Below are positions 13,909 to 30,565 of a DNA stretch of 64,000 bases, in pieces. This stretch comes from Tenericutes bacterium ADurb.Bin239 (GTDB lineage: Bacteria > Bacillota_I > Bacilli_A > RFN20 > CAG-826). The stretch is taken from NCBI GenBank assembly GCA_002069815.1, contig MWCB01000002.1:4716-68715 (forward strand). Reading direction: 5' to 3'. Both the position numbers and the translations under genes were made by a program. Each line of letters opens with the position of its first letter. Position 1 is the first letter of the stretch. Under the pieces are notes generated by a model. The model made no database searches, had not been told where the DNA came from, and was given only the letters and a program-made list of their open reading frames with translations.

Positions 13909-15714
13909 ATGAAAGCATTCATATTTAATAGTGGTATAGGATCCCGCTTAGGCGACTTAACAAAAGACAAACCCAAAGCGCTGGTTGAATTAAAAAACGG
14001 AGAAACTATTTTAGGACGACAACTTCGTATCCTGCGAAGTGTAGGAATTAAGCATATTGTCATTTCGACAGGGTATAAAGCAGAAATGATTAAAGATTAT
14101 TGTAGAAAAGAGTTTCCAGAATTAGATTTTACTTTTGTGCATAATCCAAAGTTTGACACTACCAATAGTATTTACACAATGTTCTTAGCGGAAAATACAT
14201 TTCAAGATCATTTTCTTATAATGCATGGCGATCTAGTATTTGATGAAAAAATAGTTGAAAAACTTTTAGTAGAAAAACATCGTGATTTAGCATGCATCAA
14301 TACTAATATTCCAAAACCTCTTAAAGATTTTAAAGGAAGAGTTAGGAATGGTAAACTCCATCGGATTTCGGTTGATATTTTTGGGGAAAATGATTATGCT
14401 TTGCAACCGTTATATAAGTTGAGTTTTGCCGCGATTAGCCAATGGATGCTTCAAATCAAGGATTTAGTTCGCGCAAATGTTGTTAATGTTTATGCCGAAA
14501 ATGCTTTTAATAATGCATTACCACTTCTAGATGTACGCGTCGTTGATTATAAAGATAATTTTATTGAAGAAATTGATACATTAGATGATTATGATAGAGT
14601 AAGCGATGCTGTAAGATTATTTGATTACGCAAATCAAAAAGTTTATAACGGAGATTACTTAGTTAGATTGGATGAAGTATTTAAAAAACATGATTTTAAG
14701 AGACCATTTATTGTATATAACGCTGCTGCTTATAAAAGCCCAGAGTATCCTAAGTTTATTAAAAGATATGAAACAATAATGTTTGATGATTATTCTCCTA
14801 ATCCAAAGTATGAAGAAATAATGCCTGGAATTAAACTGTTTAAAGAAAATAAATGCGATGTTATTGTTGCTATTGGTGGTGGTTCAACGTTAGACGTAGC
14901 AAAAGCAATAAAGTTATTTTCTAAACTAAATCCAAACATTGATTTTTTAAAACAAACACCAGTGTATGTTAATACTCCGCTTATTGCTATTCCCACAACA
15001 GCAGGAACTGGTAGCGAAACAACGCGATACGCTGTAATCTACGCAAGTGGTGAAAAACAATCGTTAACACATGATTGTATTTTTCCAGATATCACGATAA
15101 TTGATCCTACTTTTCTTCGCGGCTTGCCTGAATATCACCGGAGATCATCATTGCTTGACGCACTTTGTCAAGCAATTGAAAGTTATTGGTCAAAAGGCGC
15201 AACCAAACAGACCCGTGAATTTAGTGCGAGAGCGATTCACTTATTTAGGTATACTTATAAACACTATTTAGAAGGTCATCCGTTTGTGGACGATAGAATT
15301 ATGAAAATTGCCTACTTAGCAGGTCAGGCAATTAACATTACCGCTACAACAGCACCACATGCAATGAGTTATAAACTGACCTCCTTAACTGGTATTGCCC
15401 ATGGTCACGCTGTTAGTGTTACACTTCCTTACACCTATAAATATATGTTTGACAATATGGAAGTGGAAAAAGATAAAAATTTGGCTCAAACATTTGCCAA
15501 TCTTGCGAAAATTTTTGAAACTGATGAAACAAAACTATTTGAATTATTAAGAACTATCTTTGATGAATTTGAATTGGAAAAACCAAAGGTTACCGAAAAA
15601 CAACTTATGGAATTGATTAATGATGTGAATACAGAAAGGTTGCAGAATAATCCCGTTTTTCTCGATAAAGAAGCAATTTCAGAAATATATAGGAGCTCAC
15701 TCACAGTAGTGTAA
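13909..15714 (+). CDS. fusion: LicC-like nucleotidyltransferase (N) + iron-containing alcohol dehydrogenase (C), putative phosphonoacetaldehyde reductase/phosphonate cytidylyltransferase
   Basis: The N-terminus MKAFIFNSGIGSRLGDLTKDKPKALVEL has the NTP_transferase G-x-G-x-R...K pattern seen in LicC. The C-terminal 340 aa carry GGGSTLDVAKAI and conserved His residues typical of Fe-ADHs. The start lies 2 nt after the ppd stop. Confidence 0.75.
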   Translation: MKAFIFNSGIGSRLGDLTKDKPKALVELKNGETILGRQLRILRSVGIKHIVISTGYKAEMIKDYCRKEFPELDFTFVHNPKFDTTNSIYTMFLAENTFQDHFLIMHGDLVFDEKIVEKLLVEKHRDLACINTNIPKPLKDFKGRVRNGKLHRISVDIFGENDYALQPLYKLSFAAISQWMLQIKDLVRANVVNVYAENAFNNALPLLDVRVVDYKDNFIEEIDTLDDYDRVSDAVRLFDYANQKVYNGDYLVRLDEVFKKHDFKRPFIVYNAAAYKSPEYPKFIKRYETIMFDDYSPNPKYEEIMPGIKLFKENKCDVIVAIGGGSTLDVAKAIKLFSKLNPNIDFLKQTPVYVNTPLIAIPTTAGTGSETTRYAVIYASGEKQSLTHDCIFPDITIIDPTFLRGLPEYHRRSSLLDALCQAIESYWSKGATKQTREFSARAIHLFRYTYKHYLEGHPFVDDRIMKIAYLAGQAINITATTAPHAMSYKLTSLTGIAHGHAVSVTLPYTYKYMFDNMEVEKDKNLAQTFANLAKIFETDETKLFELLRTIFDEFELEKPKVTEKQLMELINDVNTERLQNNPVFLDKEAISEIYRSSLTVV

Positions 15715-18734: not shown

Positions 18735-20069
18735 ATGAAAAAAAAAGCAAGACAAGATGGCGTGGCACTTATCACATTATGGAAAATGTTTCTTAAAAAC
18801 GTATTCTCCGTTTTTTATTTTATGATTGTGGGTTTAATACTAGCAGTTATATATACACAATTTTTAGTGAAACCATCGTTTGTAGCAACTGGTAATATTG
18901 AAAATGTTGGAGCAGTAAACACGGCCTTAATGCAAACTATGCCAATGATTGCGAAGGAGCAACAAACTCTTGAAAAAGTAGTGGAAAAAATGAATGTCCC
19001 AGTTGTAGAACAAGCAAAAAAAATTGAAGAAATTAACACAAAATTAGTTGTTAATAATTATTCCGCGACAACATTAAAAGTTACTATTTCATACAAAAGC
19101 ACCGCAAAAAACGAAGCTGAACTTGTTGTCAATTGCGTAATAGAAGTCTCGATTGAACGTTTTATTGAACGAAATCCGGCATTGGAAGATAAGGTTAAAA
19201 AGCAAAGTAATCCAATTGTAGCGCGTCCAACTGGTTTATCGAATAGAGCAATATATATAGGATTTATTGGATTAGGTGTAGTATTTGGTGCTGTAGTTGG
19301 TATTGCGGGTGATTTAATTAATCGACATATTTTGTTTGCCGAAGATTTAAAAGAGTATGGTGTTCCTTGTAACGTAATTAATTTAAATCAAAAAAAGGGT
19401 GATGTTATTCCCCCACTTGAAACAGAGGAATTTTTAAAAGGAACTATAGTTTTACAAGATCAACTAGAGGGAGTGATTAGAGACAAAAAAGCAAGGGTAA
19501 TTGGAGTAGCTAATTTGGGGTATGATACTTACGAAGTTTTAAGTGCAGTACTGGCGGAGAATCTATCAAAAGTTGGACTTAAAACTTTAGTTATAGATTT
19601 AGATTTAGAACATCCAAGAATACATGCTTTCTATAATGTTGACACCGCGATAAATATAACCAACATTCTAAATGACGAAGTTATTAAACCCCTTAAAATC
19701 AAAAATAATTTAGAAGTGTTACCCACTACCACATATGCTTATCCCGCTCATTTTTTGAAAGATGAAAGATTACATAAATTAATTAGAGAAAATGCACTTA
19801 AATATGATTATGTGTTTGTTAATATTCCAATCGTGGATTATTATGCTCCTATCTTATTTAATTTTGATTTAATTGATATGTTGCTTATCAACACTTCTTT
19901 TGAAGGCACGAAGATGAAAAAATTAGATGCGTATATTGAAAACCTCGAAATAGAACATCGCAGTAAATTATTCCTTAATGGTATCGATAGTCGCGCTAAA
20001 CGGGATTTTACAAAAATTAAAGAAAAGATAAAAGCTTTATTCAAACGCAAAAATAAAAAGGACGAGTAA
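18735..20069 (+). CDS. fused polysaccharide co-polymerase (Wzz/CpsC-like, 2 TM) + degenerate CpsD/BY-kinase-like ATPase domain
   Basis: An N-terminal TM segment followed by PSFVATGNIEN and a second TM (IGFIGLGVVFGAVVGIAG) resembles CpsC. The C-terminus aligns by eye to CpsD: Walker A' LVIDLDLEHP is kept, but the P-loop GKS/T is replaced by GYDTYEV and there is no C-terminal Tyr cluster. Confidence 0.5.
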   Translation: MKKKARQDGVALITLWKMFLKNVFSVFYFMIVGLILAVIYTQFLVKPSFVATGNIENVGAVNTALMQTMPMIAKEQQTLEKVVEKMNVPVVEQAKKIEEINTKLVVNNYSATTLKVTISYKSTAKNEAELVVNCVIEVSIERFIERNPALEDKVKKQSNPIVARPTGLSNRAIYIGFIGLGVVFGAVVGIAGDLINRHILFAEDLKEYGVPCNVINLNQKKGDVIPPLETEEFLKGTIVLQDQLEGVIRDKKARVIGVANLGYDTYEVLSAVLAENLSKVGLKTLVIDLDLEHPRIHAFYNVDTAINITNILNDEVIKPLKIKNNLEVLPTTTYAYPAHFLKDERLHKLIRENALKYDYVFVNIPIVDYYAPILFNFDLIDMLLINTSFEGTKMKKLDAYIENLEIEHRSKLFLNGIDSRAKRDFTKIKEKIKALFKRKNKKDE

Positions 20070-20099: not shown

Positions 20100-21242
20100 T
20101 TATTGATACTTTTTTAATATTTCTACTGCTGTTTTTAATGTGTCCATGGGAACACATAAGCTGAGTCTTACATATTTATCGAACTTTTCACCAAAAGCGA
20201 TACCTGGTACCACGAGTAAATTATGTTCTTCTAATAATTTATTAGCGAACTCTGTACTTGTTGACTTTGTTTCACTAATATTCATAAAGTAATAGAAAGC
20301 ACCATCAGGTAAGGTGCCACTGAATAGTGGTAATTTATTAATTTCTTCATGTAAGAATAAAGCTCTTTCTTTTAATTCATTGTTATATGGAATTAGAAAC
20401 ATTGGTTTATTAGTTAAGGCGGCAACTGCTCCTTTTTGAATAAAAGTTGCGGTATTTGTGTGAATGCTTTGGTTAACTAGGTTCATTTTATGCACTAACG
20501 CTTTATTACTTAGCGCATAACCTAATCGAAAGCCAGTCATGGCATAAGTTTTACTAAAGCCATTAACGACAACGAGTTGATCTTTAATAAGCGGGAATTC
20601 GCCAAAAGAATGGAAGGCTTTCCCACTGAAGTTAAGTTTGTCATAAATTTCATCACTTAGTAAATAAATCTTATTTTGGAATACTAAATTAACAATTTTC
20701 ATTGTTTCTTGGAATGATAAGATTTGACCAGTGGGGTTATTTGGATAATTAACAATTAATAATTTTGTTTTCTTTGTAATCTTTTCTTTTAATTTTTCAA
20801 TTGGAAAAGTAAAGTCTTTATTAAGCGCTAGTTTAATAATCTTAGCTTTTGGTTCCGCGAGTTTAATCATTGCGGGATAACTAACGTAATACGGCGCGAT
20901 AATAATAACTTCGTCGCCTGGTTCAAGAATACTCGCTAGCGCTGCGTGAATCGCCGCTTTTGCGCCTGGAAAAATAATAACTTCATCTGCAGTGTAATGT
21001 TTATTTTCTTTAGCGATTAAAGTTCTTAATTCATATAAACCTTGCGGCGTGGAATACTTTGTATAACCTTCATCAAGTGCTTTCTTCGTTGCGTCAATTA
21101 TATATTCAGGGGTGGCAAAGTCAGGTTCACCGACGGCAAGCGAAATAATCTTCTCACCTTCCGCTTCTTTTTGTCTTGCTTTTTCACCGAGTAAAAGGGT
21201 CGGACTTTCTTTTATTTCCGGACTAAATAACATAAATAACAC
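20100..21242 (-). CDS. class I/II pyridoxal-phosphate aminotransferase (aspartate/aromatic aminotransferase-like)
   Basis: NYPNNPTGQ and SKTYAMTGFRLGY (the PLP-binding lysine) are the class-I aminotransferase motifs. Confidence 0.8.
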   Translation of the reverse strand: MLFMLFSPEIKESPTLLLGEKARQKEAEGEKIISLAVGEPDFATPEYIIDATKKALDEGYTKYSTPQGLYELRTLIAKENKHYTADEVIIFPGAKAAIHAALASILEPGDEVIIIAPYYVSYPAMIKLAEPKAKIIKLALNKDFTFPIEKLKEKITKKTKLLIVNYPNNPTGQILSFQETMKIVNLVFQNKIYLLSDEIYDKLNFSGKAFHSFGEFPLIKDQLVVVNGFSKTYAMTGFRLGYALSNKALVHKMNLVNQSIHTNTATFIQKGAVAALTNKPMFLIPYNNELKERALFLHEEINKLPLFSGTLPDGAFYYFMNISETKSTSTEFANKLLEEHNLLVVPGIAFGEKFDKYVRLSLCVPMDTLKTAVEILKKYQ

Positions 21243-21338
21243 CTCTTTTCTCTACAATTTTACCATATTTCACTCATTTTTAGATAAAAAATGACATTAT
21301 ATGGTAAATTATTAAATATAGGAAGAGGGGATTAATTA

Positions 21339-23045
21339 ATGAAGACATTTCACTTTAATGATGACTATGCGCTTATTTGTTTTGACGATATAAATGTTAA
21401 TGATCCTTTCTTAATTCTTAACTCTAAAAGTTTTGAAAAAGTGTTTCGAAGTTATCATCGCACTTTAAAAGATGAACAAAGTGTTTTACTTATGCCGCTT
21501 ATCAAATTAACGGCGACTGATTTATTAGAATTTTATAAACTTCTTTTTAAGTATGAACTTAGTACAGTTTTAAGACGGATGCCAAAAGTGACCAAGGAAC
21601 ACGTCTTACCCATATATGAATTAACGGAAAACTTCTATGACTATTGGCGAAAATTTGAAAGATTTGGCTTACTTAATGCTTATAAGGAAGATACATCTCG
21701 CACGAAAGTTGATGATTTACTAAAGGTAAGTAACGACTTCAACCATCAAATTATTACAATATACCGAACCATTAGTCAAAAACTTTTAGGGGAACACTTC
21801 CACGTCTATCGGCAATTACCCGCGGGGATTAGTGCGAATATGCTCTATACTTATCACACTTTTGATAAACGTTTGAAAGAGTATAAGCTTTTGAATAATA
21901 TTCCAGTGGCAACAAAGATAGTTATTCATCCACCCTTTATTATTAATTCAAAGAGTAATGTAAGACGCGGCACTTTTACACCCTTAACTTATTCTTATAA
22001 TCCAATCAATCACCTTAAGATTAATAAAAGTAGTTTTATTGCTTTTCCATTATGGGTGGGACCACTTCTAGCGTATGTTTATATTCATATTGATTTCTTA
22101 CATCACGGGATTGCGCTATCTAATCTTTTTGAAATCGCTGATTATCAAAAGATAAAAGATCAAAAACCAAACTTAATATATATCTATGGTGTTGAAGATA
22201 CTTTGTATGATTCGAAGTTTTATCATGATAATAAAAACGATATCTATTTAGGATTTGTGTGTAAGAGTGAAGAAAATGATTACTTTGGTTATCTTAAAAA
22301 GATGTTACTTACCCTTCATAACTTATATATGATTAATCACGATAGTTTGCCACTGCATGGAGCGATGGTTGAAATTACCCTTCGCACAAATGCTAAGAAA
22401 AGAGTTGTGATTGTCGGTGATAGCGGAGCGGGGAAAAGCGAAACACTAGAAGCTCTCCGTCAAATTGCAAGTGATGATATTAAAGATATCAAAGTTGTCT
22501 TTGATGATATGGGTACCCTTAGTATTAATGAAAACAAAGAAATTGTCGCTAGCGGGACGGAAATCGGCGCATTTGTAAGACTTGACGACTTAGAACAAGG
22601 TTTTGCTTATGAAGTGATGGACCGCGCCTTATTTTTAAATCCTTCCCAAGTTAACGCCCGCGTTGTTATTCCCCTAAGTAGATACTCCTTTGTGATTGAA
22701 AAGCATCCAGTTGATCTTTTCTTATACGCTAATAATTATGAAAATAAAGATGGTATTAAAGTATTTGATAAATATGATGATGCGCTCGCCGTCTTTAAAA
22801 AAGGAATGCGGAGAGCTAAGGGGACCACCGCTGAAGTTGGGATGACTCAATCTTACTTTGCTAACCCATTTGGGCCAATGCAATATCGCGCTAAGACGGA
22901 TCGATTATTAAATAAATTCTTTAAAGCTCTGAGTGATAATAAAGTGGTGTTAGGGGAGTTATACACAAAACTAGCGCTCCATGATGAGGAAGTTAGAGGA
23001 CCGGCTAATGCGGCCCTCGCGCTTCTAAAATTATTGCAAGGTTAA
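21339..23045 (+). CDS. hypothetical protein with C-terminal HPr kinase/phosphorylase-like P-loop domain
   Basis: LHGAMVEITLRTNAKKRVVIVGDSGAGKSETLEAL resembles the HprK core (HGVLVDV...GVLITGDSGIGKSETALEL). The N-terminal 350 aa match nothing I recognise. Confidence 0.45.
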   Translation: MKTFHFNDDYALICFDDINVNDPFLILNSKSFEKVFRSYHRTLKDEQSVLLMPLIKLTATDLLEFYKLLFKYELSTVLRRMPKVTKEHVLPIYELTENFYDYWRKFERFGLLNAYKEDTSRTKVDDLLKVSNDFNHQIITIYRTISQKLLGEHFHVYRQLPAGISANMLYTYHTFDKRLKEYKLLNNIPVATKIVIHPPFIINSKSNVRRGTFTPLTYSYNPINHLKINKSSFIAFPLWVGPLLAYVYIHIDFLHHGIALSNLFEIADYQKIKDQKPNLIYIYGVEDTLYDSKFYHDNKNDIYLGFVCKSEENDYFGYLKKMLLTLHNLYMINHDSLPLHGAMVEITLRTNAKKRVVIVGDSGAGKSETLEALRQIASDDIKDIKVVFDDMGTLSINENKEIVASGTEIGAFVRLDDLEQGFAYEVMDRALFLNPSQVNARVVIPLSRYSFVIEKHPVDLFLYANNYENKDGIKVFDKYDDALAVFKKGMRRAKGTTAEVGMTQSYFANPFGPMQYRAKTDRLLNKFFKALSDNKVVLGELYTKLALHDEEVRGPANAALALLKLLQG

Positions 23046-23047
23046 AC

Positions 23048-24328
23048 ATGAAAAAAGTTTATAAATATCTAGAAGAGTTTAAAAATGAACCACATTATTT
23101 AGCAAGTGTTAATGCTTTTCTTAGTGGCATCAAAGAAGAAAACATTAGTGAAGACAAGTTATTAGTGTTAATAACGCCGAACCATATTATTGAATTTGAT
23201 GTGGAGTGGACGGATGACTTAGGTAAAAAACATACCGAAAAAGGATGGCGTGTCCAACATAGCAATAAACTTGGTGTCTATAAGGGCGGGATTCGTTTTA
23301 GTAATACAGTTACGCTTGATATTTTAAAAGCACTAGCGTTTGAACAAACATTAAAAAATAGTTTAACTGGACTACCACTTGGGGGCGCGAAAGGCGGTTC
23401 CACCTTTGATCCAACACATAAGAGTGAAAACGAAATCAAACGTTTTATTAAAGCATTTATGGAAAAGTTGAGTCCTATTCTTGGTAGTAATGTTGATGTA
23501 CCCGCTGGTGATTTAGGGGTCGGCCAAAAAGAAGTAACACTCATGCAAAAGGAATATGAACGAGTATTAAATACGAAAGATATAACTTTCACGAGTAAAC
23601 TCATCAATTACGGTGGTAGTTATTTACGTAGCGAGGCGACTGGATATGGTTTATGTTACATGGTAAATGAAGCCCTTAAAAGTCGCTTTGGGACGACAAT
23701 AAAGGATAAAACGCTAATTGTATCAGGAAGTGGTAATGTCGGTCTCCACGCCGCTTTTAAAGCGAGAGAATTAGGCGCTAAAGTTATTGGTGTTAGTGAT
23801 ATAAGCGGAACGATTTATGATGATCAAGGGATTGATTTAACATTCATTAAAGCGCTTAAAGCTAATAGAGAGTCATTTGCGAACTATTTAGTAAAACACA
23901 AACACGCTAAATATAGTCCTTACCCCAAAGCCCTTTGGGAAATAAAGGCTGACATCGTGTTACCATGCGCGACACAAGATGAAATAAACACAGAAGATAT
24001 CGCAAAAATTGTAAGTAATAAACCACTTCTTATCGCCGAAGGTAGTAATCTTGGTTTAACGTTAAAAGCAGTTGAATACTTAGTAAAAAAAGAAATTTTA
24101 TTTATCCCTGGGAAAGCCGCTAATAGTGGGGGAGTAGCAGTAAGTTACTTTGAAATGCTACAAAATAAAGAAGGTGTTTCTTGGAGCGAAAGTGAAGTTG
24201 ACACTAGACTAAAAGATGTTATGAAAAATGTTTTTCGTCGTATCAATGAATATGCTTTAAAACATAATTACCCCTATGACTTAAAAAGAGCAGCGGATAT
24301 CGTAGCGCTTTTAACTTTGTTAAAATAA
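23048..24328 (+). CDS. glutamate dehydrogenase (Glu/Leu/Phe/Val dehydrogenase family)
   Basis: LPLGGAKGGSTFDP is the catalytic-Lys GGxKGG motif and GSGNVG is the dinucleotide-binding motif. The start lies 2 nt after the upstream stop. Confidence 0.85.
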   Translation: MKKVYKYLEEFKNEPHYLASVNAFLSGIKEENISEDKLLVLITPNHIIEFDVEWTDDLGKKHTEKGWRVQHSNKLGVYKGGIRFSNTVTLDILKALAFEQTLKNSLTGLPLGGAKGGSTFDPTHKSENEIKRFIKAFMEKLSPILGSNVDVPAGDLGVGQKEVTLMQKEYERVLNTKDITFTSKLINYGGSYLRSEATGYGLCYMVNEALKSRFGTTIKDKTLIVSGSGNVGLHAAFKARELGAKVIGVSDISGTIYDDQGIDLTFIKALKANRESFANYLVKHKHAKYSPYPKALWEIKADIVLPCATQDEINTEDIAKIVSNKPLLIAEGSNLGLTLKAVEYLVKKEILFIPGKAANSGGVAVSYFEMLQNKEGVSWSESEVDTRLKDVMKNVFRRINEYALKHNYPYDLKRAADIVALLTLLK

Positions 24329-24348: not shown

Positions 24349-24372
24349 CTAGGAGAGGGTCCTAGCTTTTTT
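24349..24372. terminator. bidirectional intrinsic terminator between convergent gdh and lipoprotein genes
   Basis: CTAGGA-GAGGG-TCCTAG hairpin with an A-run on its 5' side and T6 on its 3' side. Confidence 0.65.
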
Positions 24373-24408: not shown

Positions 24409-25893
24409 TTAAGCCTTAGTTACCCAAGCGGGTAAGTAAGATGTATAACCACGAAAGGTAAATACTTTTGTATCATGGAACTTTGTATTTTCTTCACCAG
24501 TAACTTTGTTTTCAAAGTCTTGAAGGTCTTCGTTCCACACGGGAGTTCCACCTGTTTTAGTTAAATCGTAATAGCCCTTAACGGGGGTACTACCTTCCAT
24601 TACTAAGTCATTAGCGCCCCCATTAGTGGAGAATTTCATAGTTCCATTAGCCGCATTCCAGAAAACATTTAAGTTTAAAGAAATGCGTGGAATTTTATAA
24701 ATCCGTTCTACCGCGGCGGCGGCGGGGTGACCTTTTGTACCATCTAAGTTATAAGTATCATCAGGATTTGGTGGTCCAGGATTTTTATTATAGGCACCCG
24801 CTCTACTAGCGGCAATTGCCACCATATATGGATTTAAGGTATCCATCAAGGCTTGGCTATTACTGCCATGACTGCCGTGGTGACTAGCTTTATATAAGCT
24901 AACCTGTGGCAACGTTTCATTCCGTAATAAACTAGTTTCGCTCCCAGTTGTTAAATCACCCGCCGTAAAAAATTTAAAGTCTTGATAACAGAAAAGTAAA
25001 GCAAGGCTATTAGCGTTACCACTGCTTGTATCACTATATGCGCCAGTATTTAAGACATCCACATAAAATTCACTCGTAAAGTAATAACGGTTTGTTGCTC
25101 CATTTACTTTATTGATCGAATCAAGCGCAGTGTAATAAACGGCACCATCATTTTGTTGACGATTACGAATGAGTTGTTTGTAAGCACTACTTTCACCACC
25201 AGCGCGTCCATAATCTAAGAAACTAGTAATATGCTCAATATCGCGAACGATATACGGAATACCCTGAGTATGATCAGCGTCACCATGACTAGCAATAACC
25301 ATATCAAGCCGGCCATCTTCCACCTTTTCATTAAGGAAGTCACGATTCATTTCGCCATCACACTGCCACCCCGCATCAATTAAGATTTCAATATTGCCTT
25401 TTTTAATTAAGAGCGAGTCAGCGTAAATTTTATAAGTTTCTAGGAAGTATACTTCAAGAGGACCATCGCCTTCATATCCTTTATAGAAAGGATCATCAGC
25501 GCTTGTCCCCGTACCAACTCCAGTTTGTTCTGCTACCTGATTAACAGTTAAGAATAAACTAGCTTTAACATCAGGATAATTAAGCGCGTGGACATTAACC
25601 ATTGTTTGACCAGCGGCGACACCAGTGACAACACCGGTTTCACTGATAGTGGCCAAAGCAGTGTCCGTAACACTCCACACGACATCTTGCGCTGCGTCTT
25701 TTGGTAATACTTCGGCTTGTAGTGAAATAGTATCATTTACGTACGTAGTAACATCAAAAACTTGAGTGTTATCTTTTAAAATTTTAACACTTAAAGGTGT
25801 GGGGGGCACACTTACTACCTCCGAAGAGGAGCGCCTAGTGCAACCACTAAGCGCTAAGAGTACTAATAAACCAAAGGTGGCTAATCTTTTCAT
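24409..25893 (-). CDS. lipoprotein: Big_2 (Ig-like) domain + ComEC-C-terminal-type metallo-beta-lactamase hydrolase (putative extracellular nuclease/hydrolase)
   Basis: The lipobox LLALSGCTRRSSSE and a Big_2-like repeat (WSVTDTALATISETGVVTG) are present. The MBL motifs VIASHGDADHTQG and YKASHHGSHGSNSQ resemble the ComEC lactamase domain. Confidence 0.6.
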   Translation of the reverse strand: MKRLATFGLLVLLALSGCTRRSSSEVVSVPPTPLSVKILKDNTQVFDVTTYVNDTISLQAEVLPKDAAQDVVWSVTDTALATISETGVVTGVAAGQTMVNVHALNYPDVKASLFLTVNQVAEQTGVGTGTSADDPFYKGYEGDGPLEVYFLETYKIYADSLLIKKGNIEILIDAGWQCDGEMNRDFLNEKVEDGRLDMVIASHGDADHTQGIPYIVRDIEHITSFLDYGRAGGESSAYKQLIRNRQQNDGAVYYTALDSINKVNGATNRYYFTSEFYVDVLNTGAYSDTSSGNANSLALLFCYQDFKFFTAGDLTTGSETSLLRNETLPQVSLYKASHHGSHGSNSQALMDTLNPYMVAIAASRAGAYNKNPGPPNPDDTYNLDGTKGHPAAAAVERIYKIPRISLNLNVFWNAANGTMKFSTNGGANDLVMEGSTPVKGYYDLTKTGGTPVWNEDLQDFENKVTGEENTKFHDTKVFTFRGYTSYLPAWVTKA

Positions 25894-25897
25894 ATTA

Positions 25898-28024
25898 TTA
25901 AGCCTCGTTGATTAATTTAAGGTTATCAATATTAATACGATTACCAGTCCCAGCTTTAACACAAAGTGCAACACGAACATTGCTGCTAGTGTCAAGACGG
26001 ACGCGGTATTTTTGTAATTCAAAGTTATTAATAGTAAATTCGCGTTCGATTTTAATCCAAGTTGCTCCATCATCAGTGGACACTTCAAACATGAGAACGG
26101 TGCCCTTTGCGTTAGTTCCGTAAATGGCACAATCAAATTCAATCATGTTAAATTCAAGATCGTTTTCTTGTAATTCAATGCGACCAGCGTTATCTTGAGC
26201 AGCGTTAGTTTGGGTACGCATTGCATAAGTACCAGTACGCTTATCTCTTTTGTCACCACCGATTAAAGTGTTTCTAAGGTACCATTGCTTTTGAGTAGGA
26301 TGACCGAGAGTAACCATATCATCGTTATGTGTATATGTTGGTTTAGTGAGACTATTACCATAACCATTAGCTGAATCAGCATCCTCTAAGTCAAAGGTAT
26401 GTAAAATTTCAAGAATGCTTTCATCAGTTCCAAAAACAGTAACGAGGAAGGTTCTAGTTGTTTGTCCGGCCCCTTTCTTAACGGTAGCGGTTAAAGTAAC
26501 ATCTTCCATAATGTCGGGGTGCGTGACTGCGCCAGTACTAGCGTTAATAATAGCACTATCTGAAGCCCATTCAACCGTCACACCCTCGTAATTTTCTAAA
26601 GTTGTTGGTAGGTTGAGAGTCGTCACTGTCGTTGGCACACAGTCAAGTACCTCTAAAGTGGCCGCGGCAATTTGAGCGGCTTGTTGTTCCGTCATTACCG
26701 CCGCCCCAAAATCAGTTGAACGAACAATTTTGAGTTGGTTGGCTGGTTTACCATAACCAAATGCACACATAACCCCAACGACATCAATCGCCGAACCAGG
26801 AGCGGTGGCTTGGAATTTTGCATTAATTGCCGCAAATTCATCAACAGTCATTAACGTTGGGTCAACGCGGAGAGTAAATTCTTGATCACCAACCATTATT
26901 TTGACGTTGTAGGCTTTAGTATAGCTTGTTGGTAAAACACTGATAACCCCCGCTTTTATTTCAACGAATGAAGCTTGGTGGGTAGCCATATCATCTAAGC
27001 TTAAGAGATTTTTATCACTAACATCAACGATATTATAGGTTAGGGCTGGAGTATGTGGCACGAAGTATTCAACATCCACTAATTCACGAGTACCGAAATA
27101 GTTTTTGAAATAACCACCAACGGTATATGATTCACCAACGGTAACAGGAAATGCATTATTATCTTGTTTATAGATATAATATCCTTCCGCGCCATTTTGG
27201 ATAAAGTATTCAACCGTGCCTTCAGCGCTAACTGGCGCTGCATAAGTTACAACGCCACGGATTTTAAACGGAGTGCCGTTTTCCGTAGCAGTTGAAACAA
27301 AATCACTATGGAGACTATAATCCATATTTTCCCAGTTTTGGCCAACTGCATCTTCGACAACTTCAAGGCTAAAGACTTTTTTAACCGTGCCTTTAACTGC
27401 ACTTGTGGCAGTAATATCAACAGGGCCAACCGCGATACCGCTAACTAGGCCCGTATTATCAACTTCAGCTTTACTCGTATCAGAACTAGACCAGAGTACT
27501 TCTTGGCTAGCTTCAACTGGTAAAACAGTAGCGTTAAGTTTTAGCGTCCCGCCCACACTCACGATCGTTAAATCATCCACTGAATTAATAAGAATTTCAG
27601 TTGGATCGGGAGTAACGATAACTTTAGGAGTAATCGCTAGTGATACTTGGGCTGAGAGATCGACATTAACCGTTGAGGTTGCGATAATAAAGACATTTCC
27701 TTCCCCTATCCCAGTTACTTCACCACTGTCGGTAATAGTCGCTTTAGTTGTGTCACTAGTTGCCCAAGTGACACTTTGCGGGGCGCCTTCAGGTTTAACA
27801 GTAGCACTAAAAAGGGCTGACTCATCAACAGCCAAACTGCTTGGGCCACTAATAGTGATACTAGTTGGTGCAATTGGGCCTCCGCTACTGGTTGTTGTAA
27901 CAACCGATCCTTCGCTACTGCTTGTTTTACAGCCGCTTAGGAGTAAAGCTACAAGCGGAATTAATAATAATCTTCTTCGTTTCATAAACATCTCCTTTCT
28001 TATATATGTAAAAAACGAAAACAT
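25898..28024 (-). CDS. lipoprotein with three Big_2 repeats, OB-fold-like and lamin-tail-like C-terminal regions (putative surface nucleic-acid/ligand binding protein)
   Basis: The lipobox LLLSGCKTSSSEG is followed by three copies of W(A/S)(T/S)SDT(S/T)KA...GxVTG. The central and C-terminal domains are assigned by eye only. Confidence 0.5.
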   Translation of the reverse strand: MFSFFTYIRKEMFMKRRRLLLIPLVALLLSGCKTSSSEGSVVTTTSSGGPIAPTSITISGPSSLAVDESALFSATVKPEGAPQSVTWATSDTTKATITDSGEVTGIGEGNVFIIATSTVNVDLSAQVSLAITPKVIVTPDPTEILINSVDDLTIVSVGGTLKLNATVLPVEASQEVLWSSSDTSKAEVDNTGLVSGIAVGPVDITATSAVKGTVKKVFSLEVVEDAVGQNWENMDYSLHSDFVSTATENGTPFKIRGVVTYAAPVSAEGTVEYFIQNGAEGYYIYKQDNNAFPVTVGESYTVGGYFKNYFGTRELVDVEYFVPHTPALTYNIVDVSDKNLLSLDDMATHQASFVEIKAGVISVLPTSYTKAYNVKIMVGDQEFTLRVDPTLMTVDEFAAINAKFQATAPGSAIDVVGVMCAFGYGKPANQLKIVRSTDFGAAVMTEQQAAQIAAATLEVLDCVPTTVTTLNLPTTLENYEGVTVEWASDSAIINASTGAVTHPDIMEDVTLTATVKKGAGQTTRTFLVTVFGTDESILEILHTFDLEDADSANGYGNSLTKPTYTHNDDMVTLGHPTQKQWYLRNTLIGGDKRDKRTGTYAMRTQTNAAQDNAGRIELQENDLEFNMIEFDCAIYGTNAKGTVLMFEVSTDDGATWIKIEREFTINNFELQKYRVRLDTSSNVRVALCVKAGTGNRINIDNLKLINEA

Positions 28025-28434: not shown

Positions 28435-29949
28435 GTGAAGTTCTTACGATATTTAAAAGAAGTATTTATCTCAAGTTTACCCCTGCTTGCCGTTATTGTT
28501 TTAGTGGGCGGAATTATCTTTCCTGTTCAAACGAAAACTGAAATACTCCAACTAACGGTTGGTTATGTTGGGGTTGTTATTGGGCAAGCCATCTTTTTAT
28601 TTGGTTTAGATTACAGTGTTTTACCAATTGGGAACTTAATTGGAAGTTCAATTGTCAAATTAAATAAATTAGCGTTTGTGTTAATGTTTGCGTTCTTATT
28701 TAGTTTACTTGCAAGTGTTGCAGAACCAGGCATTACTGTACTAGCCGCGCAAGTAGGGGGCATTCATCCACGTATTAATAGTACACTTTTCATTTGGGTT
28801 ACAAGTTTTGGGATGGGGATTCTTACGGCTTTAGCGGTATATCGCTTAATTAAAGGGATTAGCATGAAAAAAATATTCTTCTTCTTTTACTTAGCGGTTA
28901 TCATCATCATTTTCTTTGTTCCTGCGCAATTCCAAGCGCTTGGTTTTGACGCAAGTGGGGCGGCTACTGGGGCAATCAGTGTTCCTTTTATTCTTGCTTT
29001 AGGTGTTGGAGTTTCGCACACCGTTAGTCGCAATAAATCAACGGAAGATAGTTTTGGAATTGTTGGTATTGCAGCGATTGGACCGATTATTACAGTTTAT
29101 GTCTATGGATTGATTGTTGGTAATAGTGATGTGTTAAACGTATACACTCCTGGTGAAAATAGTAATTTATTAGCTGTTATGTTAAATAACTTATTACCAG
29201 TGGCCCTTGCGGTATTCCCGCTTGTTGTTATCTTTCTAATTTTCCAAGCTTTCTTTATTAAATTACCGAGAAATAAACTTGGTCAAATTATTGTGGCATC
29301 GGTTGTCGTCTTTATTGGTTTATTTATTTTTATTGCGGCGACTGACTATGGCTTAGCGTTTGCGGGTAAGTATATTGGCGAACAATTTATGCTTAGTGAA
29401 AAATTATGGTGGATCTTATTGCCCCTAGCGTTTGTGCTGGGGTTTGCCATTACTTTAAGTGAACCAAGCGTTGTCGTCTTCTGTGAACAAGTTGATGAAT
29501 TAACGAGTGGTAGTATTTCTAAAAACACCATCAAAATGGCTCTTGGTATAAGTGTAGGATTAGCTACCTTCTTCGCCGTTATTAAAACGGTGTTTGATAT
29601 TAATATCTTGTGGTTTATTGTTCCTTTTTACGTAATTACCATTGGTTTAATTTATTTTACGCCCACTTTATTTGTCGGTTTGGCTTTTGACGGCGGGACC
29701 GTTAGCGCAGGCGCTATCACTAGTGCTTTTTTAACTCCAGTGACGCTTGGCGCTAGTCAAGCTTTAGGGCATACCAACATCTTAACTTCAGGATTAGGTA
29801 TTTTAGCCTTTATCAGTGTGATGCCGCGGATTGTGGTTCAAGTGCTTGGTATAATTTATGATTACCGCTTAAAGAAAGCGACACCACCAGTGTATGAAGA
29901 TATTAGTTACGACGCTACTAAACAAGAGGAGGCTAAAGATGACGCATAA
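28435..29949 (+). CDS. DUF1538-family membrane protein (internally duplicated, ~12 TM)
   Basis: A 504-aa polytopic protein whose two halves share the pattern GL(D/T)Y...P.G..IG. The assignment to DUF1538 is from memory of the family. Confidence 0.5.
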   Translation: MKFLRYLKEVFISSLPLLAVIVLVGGIIFPVQTKTEILQLTVGYVGVVIGQAIFLFGLDYSVLPIGNLIGSSIVKLNKLAFVLMFAFLFSLLASVAEPGITVLAAQVGGIHPRINSTLFIWVTSFGMGILTALAVYRLIKGISMKKIFFFFYLAVIIIIFFVPAQFQALGFDASGAATGAISVPFILALGVGVSHTVSRNKSTEDSFGIVGIAAIGPIITVYVYGLIVGNSDVLNVYTPGENSNLLAVMLNNLLPVALAVFPLVVIFLIFQAFFIKLPRNKLGQIIVASVVVFIGLFIFIAATDYGLAFAGKYIGEQFMLSEKLWWILLPLAFVLGFAITLSEPSVVVFCEQVDELTSGSISKNTIKMALGISVGLATFFAVIKTVFDINILWFIVPFYVITIGLIYFTPTLFVGLAFDGGTVSAGAITSAFLTPVTLGASQALGHTNILTSGLGILAFISVMPRIVVQVLGIIYDYRLKKATPPVYEDISYDATKQEEAKDDA

Positions 29950-30247
29950 AGAAGAATGGGTAGTGATGGTTATTATTGCCCGTCGGAAACATAAATCCGA
30001 ATTAGTAAAGATGCTCTACGACCATGAAGCAGCGATGGTGCATCAAACCTACGCAAAAGGGACAGCCAAAGCTAGTTTTTTAAAGTCATTAGGCTTCACT
30101 TTAGAGCAAAATAAACTCTTTTTACTTGGGTTTGTTAAAACCAATCAAGTTCCAGCAATCTTTAGTGTATTAGAACACAAATATCAATTTAAACAACCAA
30201 ACTCTGGGTTTGCCTTCACATTCCCACTGGAAAAGATTAGTTACTAG
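29939..30247 (+). CDS. PII-like (GlnB-fold) regulatory protein, paralogue 1
   Basis: About 102 aa (MTHKEEWVVMVIIARRKHKSELVKML...) with a PII-like alternating pattern. I chose the ATG at 29939, which has a GAGGAGG RBS and overlaps the DUF1538 stop, over the track start. Confidence 0.5.
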   Translation: MTHKEEWVVMVIIARRKHKSELVKMLYDHEAAMVHQTYAKGTAKASFLKSLGFTLEQNKLFLLGFVKTNQVPAIFSVLEHKYQFKQPNSGFAFTFPLEKISY

Positions 30248-30259
30248 GAGGACACTTTT

Positions 30260-30565
30260 ATGGCTGAAAATATGAAAGCATTATTTGTTATAGTAAACGC
30301 TGGCTTTAGCGAACAAATCGTTGAAGTTGCCCAGAAGCATGGCGCGCGTGGTGCTACTGTTATCCCTGCTCGTGGGACTGGTAAAAAGTTTGTCAAAGTT
30401 CTTGGTATTCAATACGAACCAGAACGCGAAATCTTATTAAGCGTAGTCGAAGATGAAATTGCTCATAAGATTGCCGCGGATGTCAAAGAAAACTATGGCA
30501 AAGCAACCCCGACAAACGGGTTATGTTTTATTTTGCCAGTTTCCGATTATTTATTTAAAGATTAG
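30260..30565 (+). CDS. PII-like (GlnB-fold) regulatory protein, paralogue 2
   Basis: ALFVIVNAGFSEQIVEVAQKHGARGATVIPARGTGKK...ILLSVVEDEIAHKIAADV aligns by eye to the GlnB beta-alpha-beta core and T-loop region. An AGGAGG RBS precedes it. Confidence 0.55.
   Translation: MAENMKALFVIVNAGFSEQIVEVAQKHGARGATVIPARGTGKKFVKVLGIQYEPEREILLSVVEDEIAHKIAADVKENYGKATPTNGLCFILPVSDYLFKD

Follow-up and report, generated by a model that had tools for sequence, protein, structure and literature searches.

A possible supplier of oxaloacetate for aspartate synthesis: a large, uncharacterised PEP carboxykinase-superfamily branch whose N-terminal domain is new

The question raised by this locus is whether a gene that lies directly upstream of a glutamate dehydrogenase gene encodes a kinase-like regulator related to HprK/P, as the initial annotation proposed, or a metabolic enzyme. 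The gene, referred to here as PCKL, occupies positions 21339..23045 (+) of the 64-kb window (the whole stretch of DNA that was analysed), starts with an ATG and encodes a 568-aa protein that is divergent within the PEPCK/HprK superfamily. A homologue search recovers full-length homologues in the thousands, so PCKL is a genuine gene, and a strong Shine-Dalgarno-like sequence, GGAAGAGGGG, is predicted from the sequence at 21321..21330 (+), 8 nt 5' of the ATG. The stop codon of PCKL (TAA, 23043-23045) is followed by AC and then by the ATG of gdh at 23048, which leaves a gap of 2 nt. The product of gdh (23048..24328, +) carries the Pfam domains ELFV_dehydrog_N and ELFV_dehydrog, and its top NCBIfam match is the NADP-specific glutamate dehydrogenase (GDH) at 457 bits, below the cutoff of 536. 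No terminator-like site was found at the PCKL-gdh junction, while a terminator-like hairpin followed by a T-run is located 3' of gdh at 24349..24365 (+), and PCKL and gdh probably form one bicistronic unit. Divergent from PCKL is a class I aminotransferase gene (20100..21242, -), recognised by both Pfam and NCBIfam, for which the top NCBIfam match is aspartate aminotransferase, under its cutoff. The 96-bp intergenic region between the two genes (21243..21338) presumably contains the promoters of both; a strong sigma-70 consensus was not found in it. These coordinates and domain matches bear out the arrangement given in the initial annotation, in which PCKL ends 2 nt before gdh and is divergent from a class I aminotransferase.

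The predicted fold of PCKL is that of a PEP carboxykinase (PEPCK). When an AlphaFold (AF2) model of the full-length protein (pLDDT 89.8) is compared with the PDB by Foldseek, the best 50 matches are all ATP- or GTP-PEPCKs (E 1e-15 to 1e-13, probability 1.0), with TM-scores of 0.40-0.50 across 350-596 columns. The GTP-PEPCKs among these matches (EC 4.1.1.32; rat, chicken and M. tuberculosis) have E-values of about 5e-14 and align over up to 596 columns with high rmsd, and at 9-12% identity they are no closer to PCKL than is ATP-PEPCK. Alignment of the family profile with E. coli PckA by hhalign delimits a PEPCK-like catalytic core, residues 258-568 (22110..23042, +). Residues 258-454 of PCKL fall on residues 146-346 of PckA with a probability of 77-83% and an E-value of 1e-5 to 2e-5, and at a looser setting (mact 0.05) the alignment reaches PCKL residue 568, opposite PckA residue 464, with a PckA span of up to 17-464, so that the alignments cover 181-381 columns. 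PCKL does not reach the cutoffs of the curated models, scoring 12.8 bits against the 26.5 required by PF01293 (PEPCK_ATP) and 23 bits against the 369 required by the NCBIfam PEPCK model NF006821. PEPCK_ATP is the most frequent weak Pfam match across the family (35 of 52 members), and searches of PDB sequences with the family profiles retrieved no PEPCK. The PDB sequence searches, by single sequence or profile HMM, matched generic P-loop proteins (ABC transporters and Rab GTPases, for example), which are uninformative. PCKL is a member of a large uncharacterised branch of the PEPCK superfamily that has a new N-terminal domain. The initial annotation had set membership of a known enzyme family such as PEPCK against its own proposal; within the superfamily PCKL does group with PEPCK, although without passing the curated PEPCK models.

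Within the aligned region all of the catalytic residues of PckA are retained in PCKL and are invariant across 39 family members. The roles given here for catalytic and metal-binding residues follow E. coli PckA numbering and are those of published PckA structures. The sequence Y315-F-G-Y-L-K320-K321 (22281..22301, +) falls on Y207-G-G-E-M-K212-K213 of PckA and is invariant; Y207 is the tyrosine that contacts CO2 and substrate, and a lysine of the K212/K213 pair is at the Mn2+ site. This Tyr and Lys-Lys element is specific to PEPCK and is lacking in HprK. H340 (22356..22358, +) falls on PckA H232 and also on the conserved histidine of HprK, and D389-D390 (22503..22508, +) on PckA D268-D269, of which H232 and D269 are Mn2+ ligands. 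The P-loop G360-D-S-G-A-G-K-S-E368 (22416..22442, +) has the HprK/P pattern GDSGxGKSE where PckA has GLSGTGKTT; S362 and K366/S367 align with PckA S250 and K254/T255, the replacement of T255 by serine being conservative. R441, in an N-A-R sequence (22659..22661, +), corresponds to R333 in the N-T-R of PckA. The hhalign alignment also pairs three C-terminal PEPCK motifs that are kept (LYANNY/LTADAF, AKGTTAEVG/AKLAGTERG and YFANPFG/FSACFGA). The signature L-I-G-D-D-E-H-x-W, which we take to be the PROSITE-type pattern for ATP-dependent PEPCK, is absent, as PCKL has V-V-F-D-D-M-G-T-L and retains the two aspartates alone. Overall, PCKL resembles ATP-PEPCK (PckA, EC 4.1.1.49, PF01293) in fold, in length (568 versus 540 aa), in its catalytic residues and the sequence in which they follow one another, and in the C-terminal motifs, and differs from it in falling under all curated thresholds, with about 13% identity in structural alignments, and in the P-loop (GDSGAGKSE versus GLSGTGKTT), the aspartate motif (DDMG versus DDEHGW) and the N-terminal domain, which is unrelated.

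The N-terminal domain, residues 1-257 (21339..22109, +), is specific to the family and is composed of long helices and beta strands. Modelled separately (AF2, pLDDT 83.5), it has no structural relative in the PDB according to Foldseek (best E=0.2, TM<0.2). The initial annotation had described the N-terminal 340 aa as matching nothing, which is true of residues 1-257 with respect to the PDB, but residues 258-340 align with the PEPCK segment that bears the catalytic tyrosine and Lys-Lys pair. Residues 1-257 take the place of PckA 1-145, including R65, and the loose hhalign alignment gives no confident PCKL counterpart for PckA 1-145; its N-terminal stretch lacks confidence, and an equivalent of R65 was not found in PCKL. 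In PckA, R65 is a CO2/oxaloacetate-binding residue supplied by the N-terminal domain. Since PckA 1-145 is replaced by a domain unlike any known structure, half of the substrate pocket of PCKL is only putative, and the substrate may be a different one. Invariant residues within the N-terminal domain include R104, R108, R143, R158-Q-L-P-A-G163, N207, R209 and H250.

PCKL homologues comprise more than 5,783 protein clusters and occur in at least 589 species, and carriers include Acholeplasmatales, Izemoplasmatales, Anaeroplasma, gut Erysipelotrichales, Clostridium, Cetobacterium and free-living wall-less bacteria. Neither Pfam nor NCBIfam has a model for the family, and literature searches found no papers on it. 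The label 'phosphoenolpyruvate carboxykinase' that homologues carry in databases is automatic rather than experimental, and the JGI label 'EcfA2' and a Pfam ABC_tran match are P-loop artefacts. A search with the family profile yields only 671 representatives at E<1e-3, and these matches are unnamed; judging from that count, canonical PEPCKs presumably lie outside the profile matches. Of 52 family members, 16 match DUF4914 weakly (best E=0.003) and the PCKL of the window does not, suggesting from sequence comparison that DUF4914 may be another uncharacterised relative in the PEPCK/HprK superfamily; no literature on DUF4914 was found. A heliobacterial 'PEP carboxykinase-like protein' is described in the literature and could not be connected with the PCKL family.

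Gene contexts of the family, surveyed with 10-kb flanks at 80 loci from different species, are centred on aspartate. Aspartate-linked neighbours occur at 43 of the 80 loci in about ten arrangements, which include aminotransferases of the AspC/AspB type (14 loci), a BhcA-like class V aminotransferase (5 loci), asnA directly upstream of PCKL (2 loci), an operon of PCKL with thrC, thrB, hom, asd and the aspartate kinase gene ask (2 loci), and fhs-PCKL-purE-purK-purL or folD-purB arrangements (about 20 loci). The partner aminotransferases span class I, class V and branched-chain types, and in three giant proteins, each from a different 50% cluster, an Aminotran_1_2 domain is fused to the PCKL core. 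The divergent pairing of aminotransferase and PCKL is retained in all seven close relatives examined. Although gdh is found near PCKL at 10 loci, it is not adjacent in relatives at 87%, 84% and 67% identity, and it was rejected as the conserved partner of PCKL since it comes and goes while the aminotransferase/aspartate theme stays. The gdh neighbourhood that the initial annotation emphasised is thus patchy, but the broader neighbourhood is well conserved, and the placement of PCKL in amino-group metabolism rather than in a PTS context stands. Canonical pckA is not present in any PCKL locus retrieved.

It is proposed, with a probability of roughly 0.55, that PCKL represents a fourth lineage of nucleotide-dependent PEPCK which supplies oxaloacetate for aspartate. 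The C-terminal 310 residues would form a PEPCK-like active site, in which the P-loop binds Mg-nucleotide and a Lys/His/Asp site binds Mn2+, and this site is predicted from sequence and model to interconvert PEP + CO2 + NDP and oxaloacetate + NTP. The adjoining class I aminotransferase would convert oxaloacetate to aspartate with glutamate as the amino donor, and the glutamate would be regenerated by GDH, probably co-transcribed with PCKL, such that PEP + CO2 + NH4+ + NAD(P)H would yield aspartate with conservation of ATP. The gene neighbours suggest that wall-less and related bacteria use PCKL to make the oxaloacetate from which they build aspartate. The fold, the kept catalytic residues and the gene contexts centred on aspartate are shown by the analysis; which substrate and which nucleotide the enzyme uses, and in which direction flux runs, is inferred. 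Both PEP-carboxylating activity and transamination of aspartate have reportedly been found in Acholeplasma, a report that is not counted as evidence here. The points counted in favour of PEPCK are the fold of the top 50 matches, the PckA alignment, the retained residues, the weak Pfam matches, the gene context, the aminotransferase fusions and the lack of pckA nearby; those counted against it are the missed curated models, the exchanged N-terminal domain, the reduced signature, the HprK-type P-loop (GKSE), the loss of gdh adjacency in relatives and the automatic origin of the database name. The proposed direction is feasible, since in CO2-rich anaerobic settings PEPCK often works as a carboxylating enzyme (PEP-pyruvate-oxaloacetate review, PMC8100219).

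The reading of PCKL as an HprK/P-like Ser kinase/phosphorylase that regulates GDH, the aminotransferase or another protein draws on a near-identical P-loop block that PCKL shares with HprK/P (PF07475) within the superfamily, in which a conserved His strand comes before GxSGxGKSE and Asp-Asp after it, and on the position of gdh only 2 nt away. In BLASTP, HprK/P catalytic domains are 38-42% identical to PCKL, with the identity confined to residues 339-390, and HGAMVEI...VVIVGDSGAGKSETLEAL...FDD (in outline HG..V.I...VVI.GDSGAGKSET...DD) resembles 1ko7 and 1jb1 at this level over 48-56 residues. The likeness ends after about 56 columns, as hhalign aligns residues 339-406 alone with HprK (at default settings 47-56 columns out of about 160, E about 8e-6), and the alignment with PckA is longer by a factor of three to seven. 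The initial annotation was right about the P-loop block but had the HprK/P core followed over residues 345-520, where the similarity extends over 339-406 at most. Hpr_kinase_C (PF07475) matches five of 52 family members weakly (best E=7.7e-5), but does not match PCKL at E<=1, and HprK structures are absent from the best 50 PDB fold matches. HprK/P is a protein of about 310 aa with another N-terminal domain and the protein HPr as its substrate, and it has neither the Tyr/Lys-Lys element nor the extended C-terminal PEPCK region of PCKL, whereas that element and the C-terminal motifs are invariant in the PCKL family; PCKL departs from this two-domain architecture in its length and in residues 1-257, for which the PDB, full-length 1ko7 included, holds no match. 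No ptsH- or hprK-like genes were found in the window or in 81 related loci by searches with an HPr sequence as bait. Membership of thr and pur operons and fusion to an aminotransferase are the pattern of a pathway enzyme. A regulator of this kind is very improbable, and the fold, the longer PckA alignment and the PEPCK-specific residues speak against that part of the initial annotation.

It is possible, though with clearly lower probability than the PEPCK reading, that PCKL is an enzyme of PEPCK fold that catalyses a different phosphoryl-transfer reaction with unchanged metal and nucleotide chemistry, its N-terminal domain binding another carboxylate or 2-oxo acid from aspartate or amino-group metabolism, and that acts beside the aminotransferase. 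This possibility gains from an N-terminal domain that has its own invariant Arg and His residues in place of the R65-containing region, from the remoteness of the family from canonical PEPCK, from the several classes of partner aminotransferase and from the fusions, which suggest tight coupling. Against it, the alignable catalytic residues, including the CO2-contacting tyrosine and Lys-Lys, are as in PckA, the partners that recur point to aspartate, the amino acid corresponding to oxaloacetate, and no context points specifically to another substrate. The more specific form of the idea, in which PCKL is not a PEPCK and a new activity on the PEPCK core is coupled to the aminotransferase, and in some bacteria fused to it, with the N-terminal domain selecting another substrate of the aspartate family or another 2-oxo acid, is likewise tentative and slightly more doubtful; if true, it would constitute an unrecognised step toward amino-acid or purine precursors in Mycoplasmatota and Bacillota. 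A mainly catabolic function is unlikely. Here aspartate or glutamate would be deaminated through the aminotransferase and GDH, a classic transdeamination pair, and oxaloacetate would be converted to PEP or decarboxylated for fermentation. The same chemistry and the same three genes suit both directions, and PEPCK reactions are near equilibrium (PMC8100219), but the contexts in other lineages (the thr operon, asnA and the purine operon) are biosynthetic consumers of aspartate, and oxaloacetate supply is favoured for that reason. The catabolic proposal is a variant of the PEPCK reading and not a separate identity for the protein.

Three kinds of PEPCK, dependent on ATP, GTP or PPi, are recognised (PMC8100219). 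The PPi-dependent enzyme (EC 4.1.1.38) was recognised late, has no InterPro family and is evolutionarily unrelated to the ATP and GTP enzymes (PMC8100219), to which PCKL is clearly related. If the PEPCK reading is true, PCKL would be a fourth lineage, related to the ATP and GTP enzymes and set apart from them by its novel N-terminal domain and by a P-loop of the HprK type. Its sequence features are intermediate between PEPCK and HprK/P, and the family is informative about the descent of a metabolic enzyme and a protein kinase from one ancestor. If PCKL forms oxaloacetate, it would close the anaplerotic gap that metabolic reconstructions leave in organisms without a TCA cycle and would explain the source of aspartate for the synthesis of protein, threonine, asparagine and purines.

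The PCKL gene in the window is a 568-aa ORF (21339-23045, forward strand) that starts with ATG and is preceded by a strong ribosome-binding site (GGAAGAGGGG). Its TAA stop codon (23043-23045) is 2 bases from the next ATG (23048), which begins a gene identified by Pfam and NCBIfam scans as glutamate dehydrogenase (gdh). No terminator-like structure was found between the two genes, and one is located downstream of gdh at 24349-24365. A divergent class I aminotransferase gene lies upstream of PCKL (20100-21242, reverse strand), its best NCBIfam match, aspartate aminotransferase, being below the cutoff. The initial annotation had placed the ORF exactly with respect to both neighbors. PCKL is a real gene, with full-length homologues in the thousands.

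A search of 5.8 billion proteins returned more than 5,783 clusters of homologues, nearly all of them full-length proteins of 560-575 aa without a Pfam domain. Some homologues are named 'phosphoenolpyruvate carboxykinase' (NCBI) and some 'EcfA2' (JGI), both names being automatic. Entries from 'Tenericutes bacterium ADurb.Bin239' and a 'Bacilli bacterium' MAG share 99% identity with the window protein. When 1.84 billion representatives were searched exhaustively with the profile, only 671 reached E<1e-3 and, of these, 190 reached E<1e-30, and the family is therefore compact; given the small size of the set of 671, which comes from a library without names, canonical PEP carboxykinases (PEPCKs) presumably lie outside it. 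A genome scan found PCKL in at least 589 species, mostly of the Acholeplasmatales, Izemoplasmatales, Anaeroplasmataceae, Erysipelotrichales (Thomasclavelia, Eggerthia and Turicibacter), Clostridium, Peptoniphilaceae and Cetobacterium. About 100 invariant columns are spread over the whole length of PCKL in 39 aligned members (47-67% identity), as is typical of an enzyme.

The same tests were applied to both candidate families, HprK and PEPCK, using E. coli pck from the annotated genome as the PckA template and the catalytic domains 1ko7 and 1jb1 (PDB alignments) as templates for HPr kinase/phosphorylase (HprK/P). By BLASTP, identity to HprK/P reaches 38-42% but is confined to residues 339-390 of the window protein, compared with 25% to PckA across residues 260-380; the short stretch of high identity is why a reader of the raw sequence sees HprK. 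In hhalign comparisons with a 52-member profile, the two candidates are equal in significance but differ in alignment length, as HprK (probability 83-84%, E about 8e-6) aligns over 47-56 columns (339-406) and PckA (probability 82.7%, E 9.5e-6) over 181 columns (258-454 with PckA 146-346), or over 381 columns with looser settings (131-568 with PckA 17-464). PCKL stays below the cutoff of every Pfam and NCBIfam model, and its specific weak matches, leaving aside generic P-loop hits, are all to ATP-dependent PEPCK (PF01293, E=0.049; NF006821, E=2.7e-5, 23 bits versus a cutoff of 369). Hpr_kinase_C went unreported in the Pfam scan of the window protein even at E<=1. When the 52 members were scanned individually, PEPCK_ATP was the most frequent match (35 members, best E=1.7e-5) and Hpr_kinase_C was found in five. 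For an AlphaFold2 model built from the family alignment (pLDDT 89.8, pTM 0.89), all of the top 50 Foldseek matches in the PDB are PEPCKs (E 1e-15 to 1e-13, probability 1.0, TM 0.40-0.50, 350-596 columns, 9-15% identity), comprising the ATP-dependent enzymes of E. coli, Thermus, Anaerobiospirillum and Actinobacillus and the GTP-dependent enzymes of rat, chicken and M. tuberculosis; no HprK/P structure is among these 50. The fold, BLASTP, hhalign and Pfam comparisons indicate that PCKL belongs to the PEPCK/HprK superfamily, with a P-loop of the HprK type but an architecture and extended core like those of PEPCK. PCKL is not an HprK/P, since it fails on domain model, alignment extent and architecture. 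Nor does it fall within the curated ATP-PEPCK family: its scores are below the model thresholds, the N-terminal domain of PckA has no confident counterpart, and the PEPCK signature at the Asp-Asp pair is not retained. As far as sequence and fold can be read, its working is PEPCK-like.

In the alignment with PckA, for which the residue numbering was confirmed on the actual E. coli sequence, PCKL residues Y315, K320/K321, H340, S362, K366, S367, D389/D390 and R441 correspond to Y207, K212/K213, H232, S250, K254, T255, D268/D269 and R333, respectively, and all of these PCKL residues are invariant in the 39-sequence alignment. In published PckA structures, K213, H232 and D269 are ligands of the catalytic Mn2+, K254 and T255 bind Mg2+ together with the phosphates of the nucleotide, and Y207 is in contact with CO2 and substrate, R333 with the phosphoryl and enolate region. 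The element comprising the Tyr and Lys-Lys, which PCKL has, sits in a part of PEPCK that is absent from HprK/P. Downstream PEPCK motifs are also recognizable in the PCKL/PckA alignment (LYANNY/LTADAF, AKGTTAEVG/AKLAGTERG and YFANPFG/FSACFGA).

By hhalign, nothing in PCKL could be confidently matched to PckA residues 1-145, the part that contains R65 of the oxaloacetate/CO2 site. PCKL residues 1-257 modelled alone gave a pLDDT of 83.5, and Foldseek found no structural match for this model (best E=0.2, TM below 0.2). The initial annotation's statement that the N-terminus matches nothing holds for residues 1-257 but not for 258-340, where PCKL aligns with PckA. The N-terminal domain has invariant residues of its own (R104, R108, R143, R158-QLPAG, N207, R209 and H250), and the role of R65 could be taken over by any of these invariant arginines. 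Six homologues of 637-673 aa (P0225, P0230, P0231, P0235, P0260 and P0262) form a distant subfamily whose match to the family profile is broken into several stretches and lies mostly within residues ~20-350. The P-loop columns are gapped in six sequences of the 52-member alignment, suspected to be the same six; these relatives may lack a P-loop, or the alignment may simply be wrong there. The three that were scanned (P0225, P0230 and P0262) have no Pfam match. Weak matches to DUF4914 occur in 16 of the 52 members (best E=0.003), and this Pfam family, on which no literature was found, may be a further branch of the PEPCK/HprK superfamily.

All seven close relatives that were examined have PCKL and the aminotransferase as a divergent pair. 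Conservation of the gdh neighborhood, proposed in the initial annotation as a check, proved partial: gdh is directly 3' of PCKL in the window, in one 65% relative (3-nt gap) and in two 55% relatives, but not in the 87%, 84% and 67% relatives, the last of which has an ABC-F gene there. The aminotransferase is the tighter partner of PCKL, and the coupling to gdh is real but evolutionarily labile. For the 80 best-matching species, all neighboring ORFs were clustered without preselection and recurrent clusters were annotated. AspC/AspB-type class I aminotransferases are near PCKL at 14 loci and branched-chain aminotransferases at eight; a class V aminotransferase (best match aspartate-glyoxylate aminotransferase) is immediately adjacent at five, and gdh is within 6 kb at 10. 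Immediately upstream of PCKL are formate-THF ligase (20 loci, gaps of 7-28 nt) or asnA (two loci), while purE-purK-purL or folD-purB is downstream at 18 loci and a PCKL-thrC-thrB-hom-asd-aspartate kinase operon occurs at two. At least one aspartate-linked neighbor was found at 43 of the 80 loci, in roughly ten arrangements that span two phyla and several orders. What these neighbors share is aspartate, which the aminotransferase produces, asparagine synthetase A and aspartate kinase use, and purine synthesis consumes as one of its substrates. Because certain arrangements, fhs-PCKL-purE above all, are from a single clade, the locus counts are inflated relative to independent events, although the variety of arrangements is not. 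No canonical pckA was found in any of the DNA fetched around PCKL homologues.

Three proteins of 2,084-2,199 aa from separate 50% clusters (P0248, encoded at L082:8001-14255, P0241 and P0250) carry an Aminotran_1_2 domain (residues ~720-860; 27-36 bits versus a cutoff of 19.7) upstream of a PCKL-like core (~1400-1730), and their remaining ~1,500 residues are without annotation. The contig encoding P0248 is bacterial, with gdh about 8 kb away and genes for SLH and cohesin proteins. Gly replaces the first Asp of the Asp-Asp pair in P0248 (IIAGDM). At 11 loci (L004, L007-L010, L012, L014-L016, L019 and L022), a conserved 372-aa protein without an NCBIfam match is encoded upstream of PCKL, directly in seven and one gene away in four (e.g., L022:4771-5889). 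These loci are from Acholeplasmataceae, Mariniplasma and unclassified Tenericutes/Bacillota MAGs, and the gene often follows tig-lon-engB.

The other content of the 64-kb window is unrelated, and includes surface polysaccharide genes, a pseudouridine synthase, Big_2 lipoproteins and YfhO. A 601-aa fusion of a nucleotidyltransferase (NTP_transferase/NTP_transf_3) and an iron-containing alcohol dehydrogenase (13909-15714, forward strand) adjoins a Bac_transf sugar transferase, is kept in syntenic relatives (L083) and probably belongs to a surface glycopolymer pathway. Between the pseudouridine synthase and aminotransferase genes is a 444-aa ORF (18735-20069, forward strand) without a Pfam match, which is kept in two near relatives (L085, 446 aa; L086, 442 aa) and absent from the 67% relative (L083). 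Directly after gdh, two neighboring lipoprotein-like genes with Big_2 domains, one also with a metallo-beta-lactamase domain (24409-28024, reverse strand), lie in a stretch with a G+C content of 0.39-0.42 compared with ~0.32 upstream, and may be a laterally acquired surface-protein island. A DUF1538 membrane protein gene is followed by small ORFs of 117 and 101 aa (28435-30565, forward strand). In the syntenic relative L083 the ORF at the second position after DUF1538 carries a P-II annotation (PF00543), so the window may encode a P-II-like signalling protein ~6 kb from gdh.

It is proposed, with a probability of about 0.55, that PCKL is a PEPCK-type enzyme making oxaloacetate for aspartate. 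The fold, residues and gene context were observed in this analysis, and we infer the substrate, nucleotide and direction. The P-loop would bind Mg-nucleotide and K321, H340 and D390 would bind Mn2+, allowing the PEPCK reaction (PEP + CO2 + NDP -> oxaloacetate + NTP); the divergently transcribed aminotransferase would convert oxaloacetate to aspartate with glutamate as donor, and the co-transcribed GDH would regenerate glutamate from 2-oxoglutarate and ammonium. PEP-carboxylating activity was reportedly described in Acholeplasma by Manolukas et al. in 1988, a report not used as evidence here. For anaerobic habitats rich in CO2, there is good documentation of PEPCK working as a carboxylating enzyme (PMC8100219). 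PCKL might instead run in the catabolic direction, from aspartate/glutamate to PEP, a variant that leaves its identity unchanged. Less likely than the main reading is that the PEPCK core acts on another substrate, as suggested by the new N-terminal half of the pocket, the lost PEPCK signature around the Asp-Asp pair and the several classes of partner aminotransferases. The initial annotation had favored an HprK-related regulator, and an HprK-like protein kinase controlling GDH or the aminotransferase would have as its sole basis the roughly 50-residue P-loop block common to PCKL and HprK/P; the presence of PEPCK-specific residues, the fold ranking with PEPCKs on top and the pattern of operons and fusions make such a kinase very improbable.

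ATP-, GTP- and PPi-dependent enzymes are the only PEPCKs listed in a 2020 review of the PEP-pyruvate-oxaloacetate node (PMC8100219), and no literature on the PCKL family was found; PCKL is therefore taken to be a lineage of its own within the PEPCK/HprK superfamily, widespread but uncharacterised. If PCKL does supply oxaloacetate for aspartate, lineages without a TCA cycle could pass from glycolysis to aspartate by a complete route that conserves ATP.
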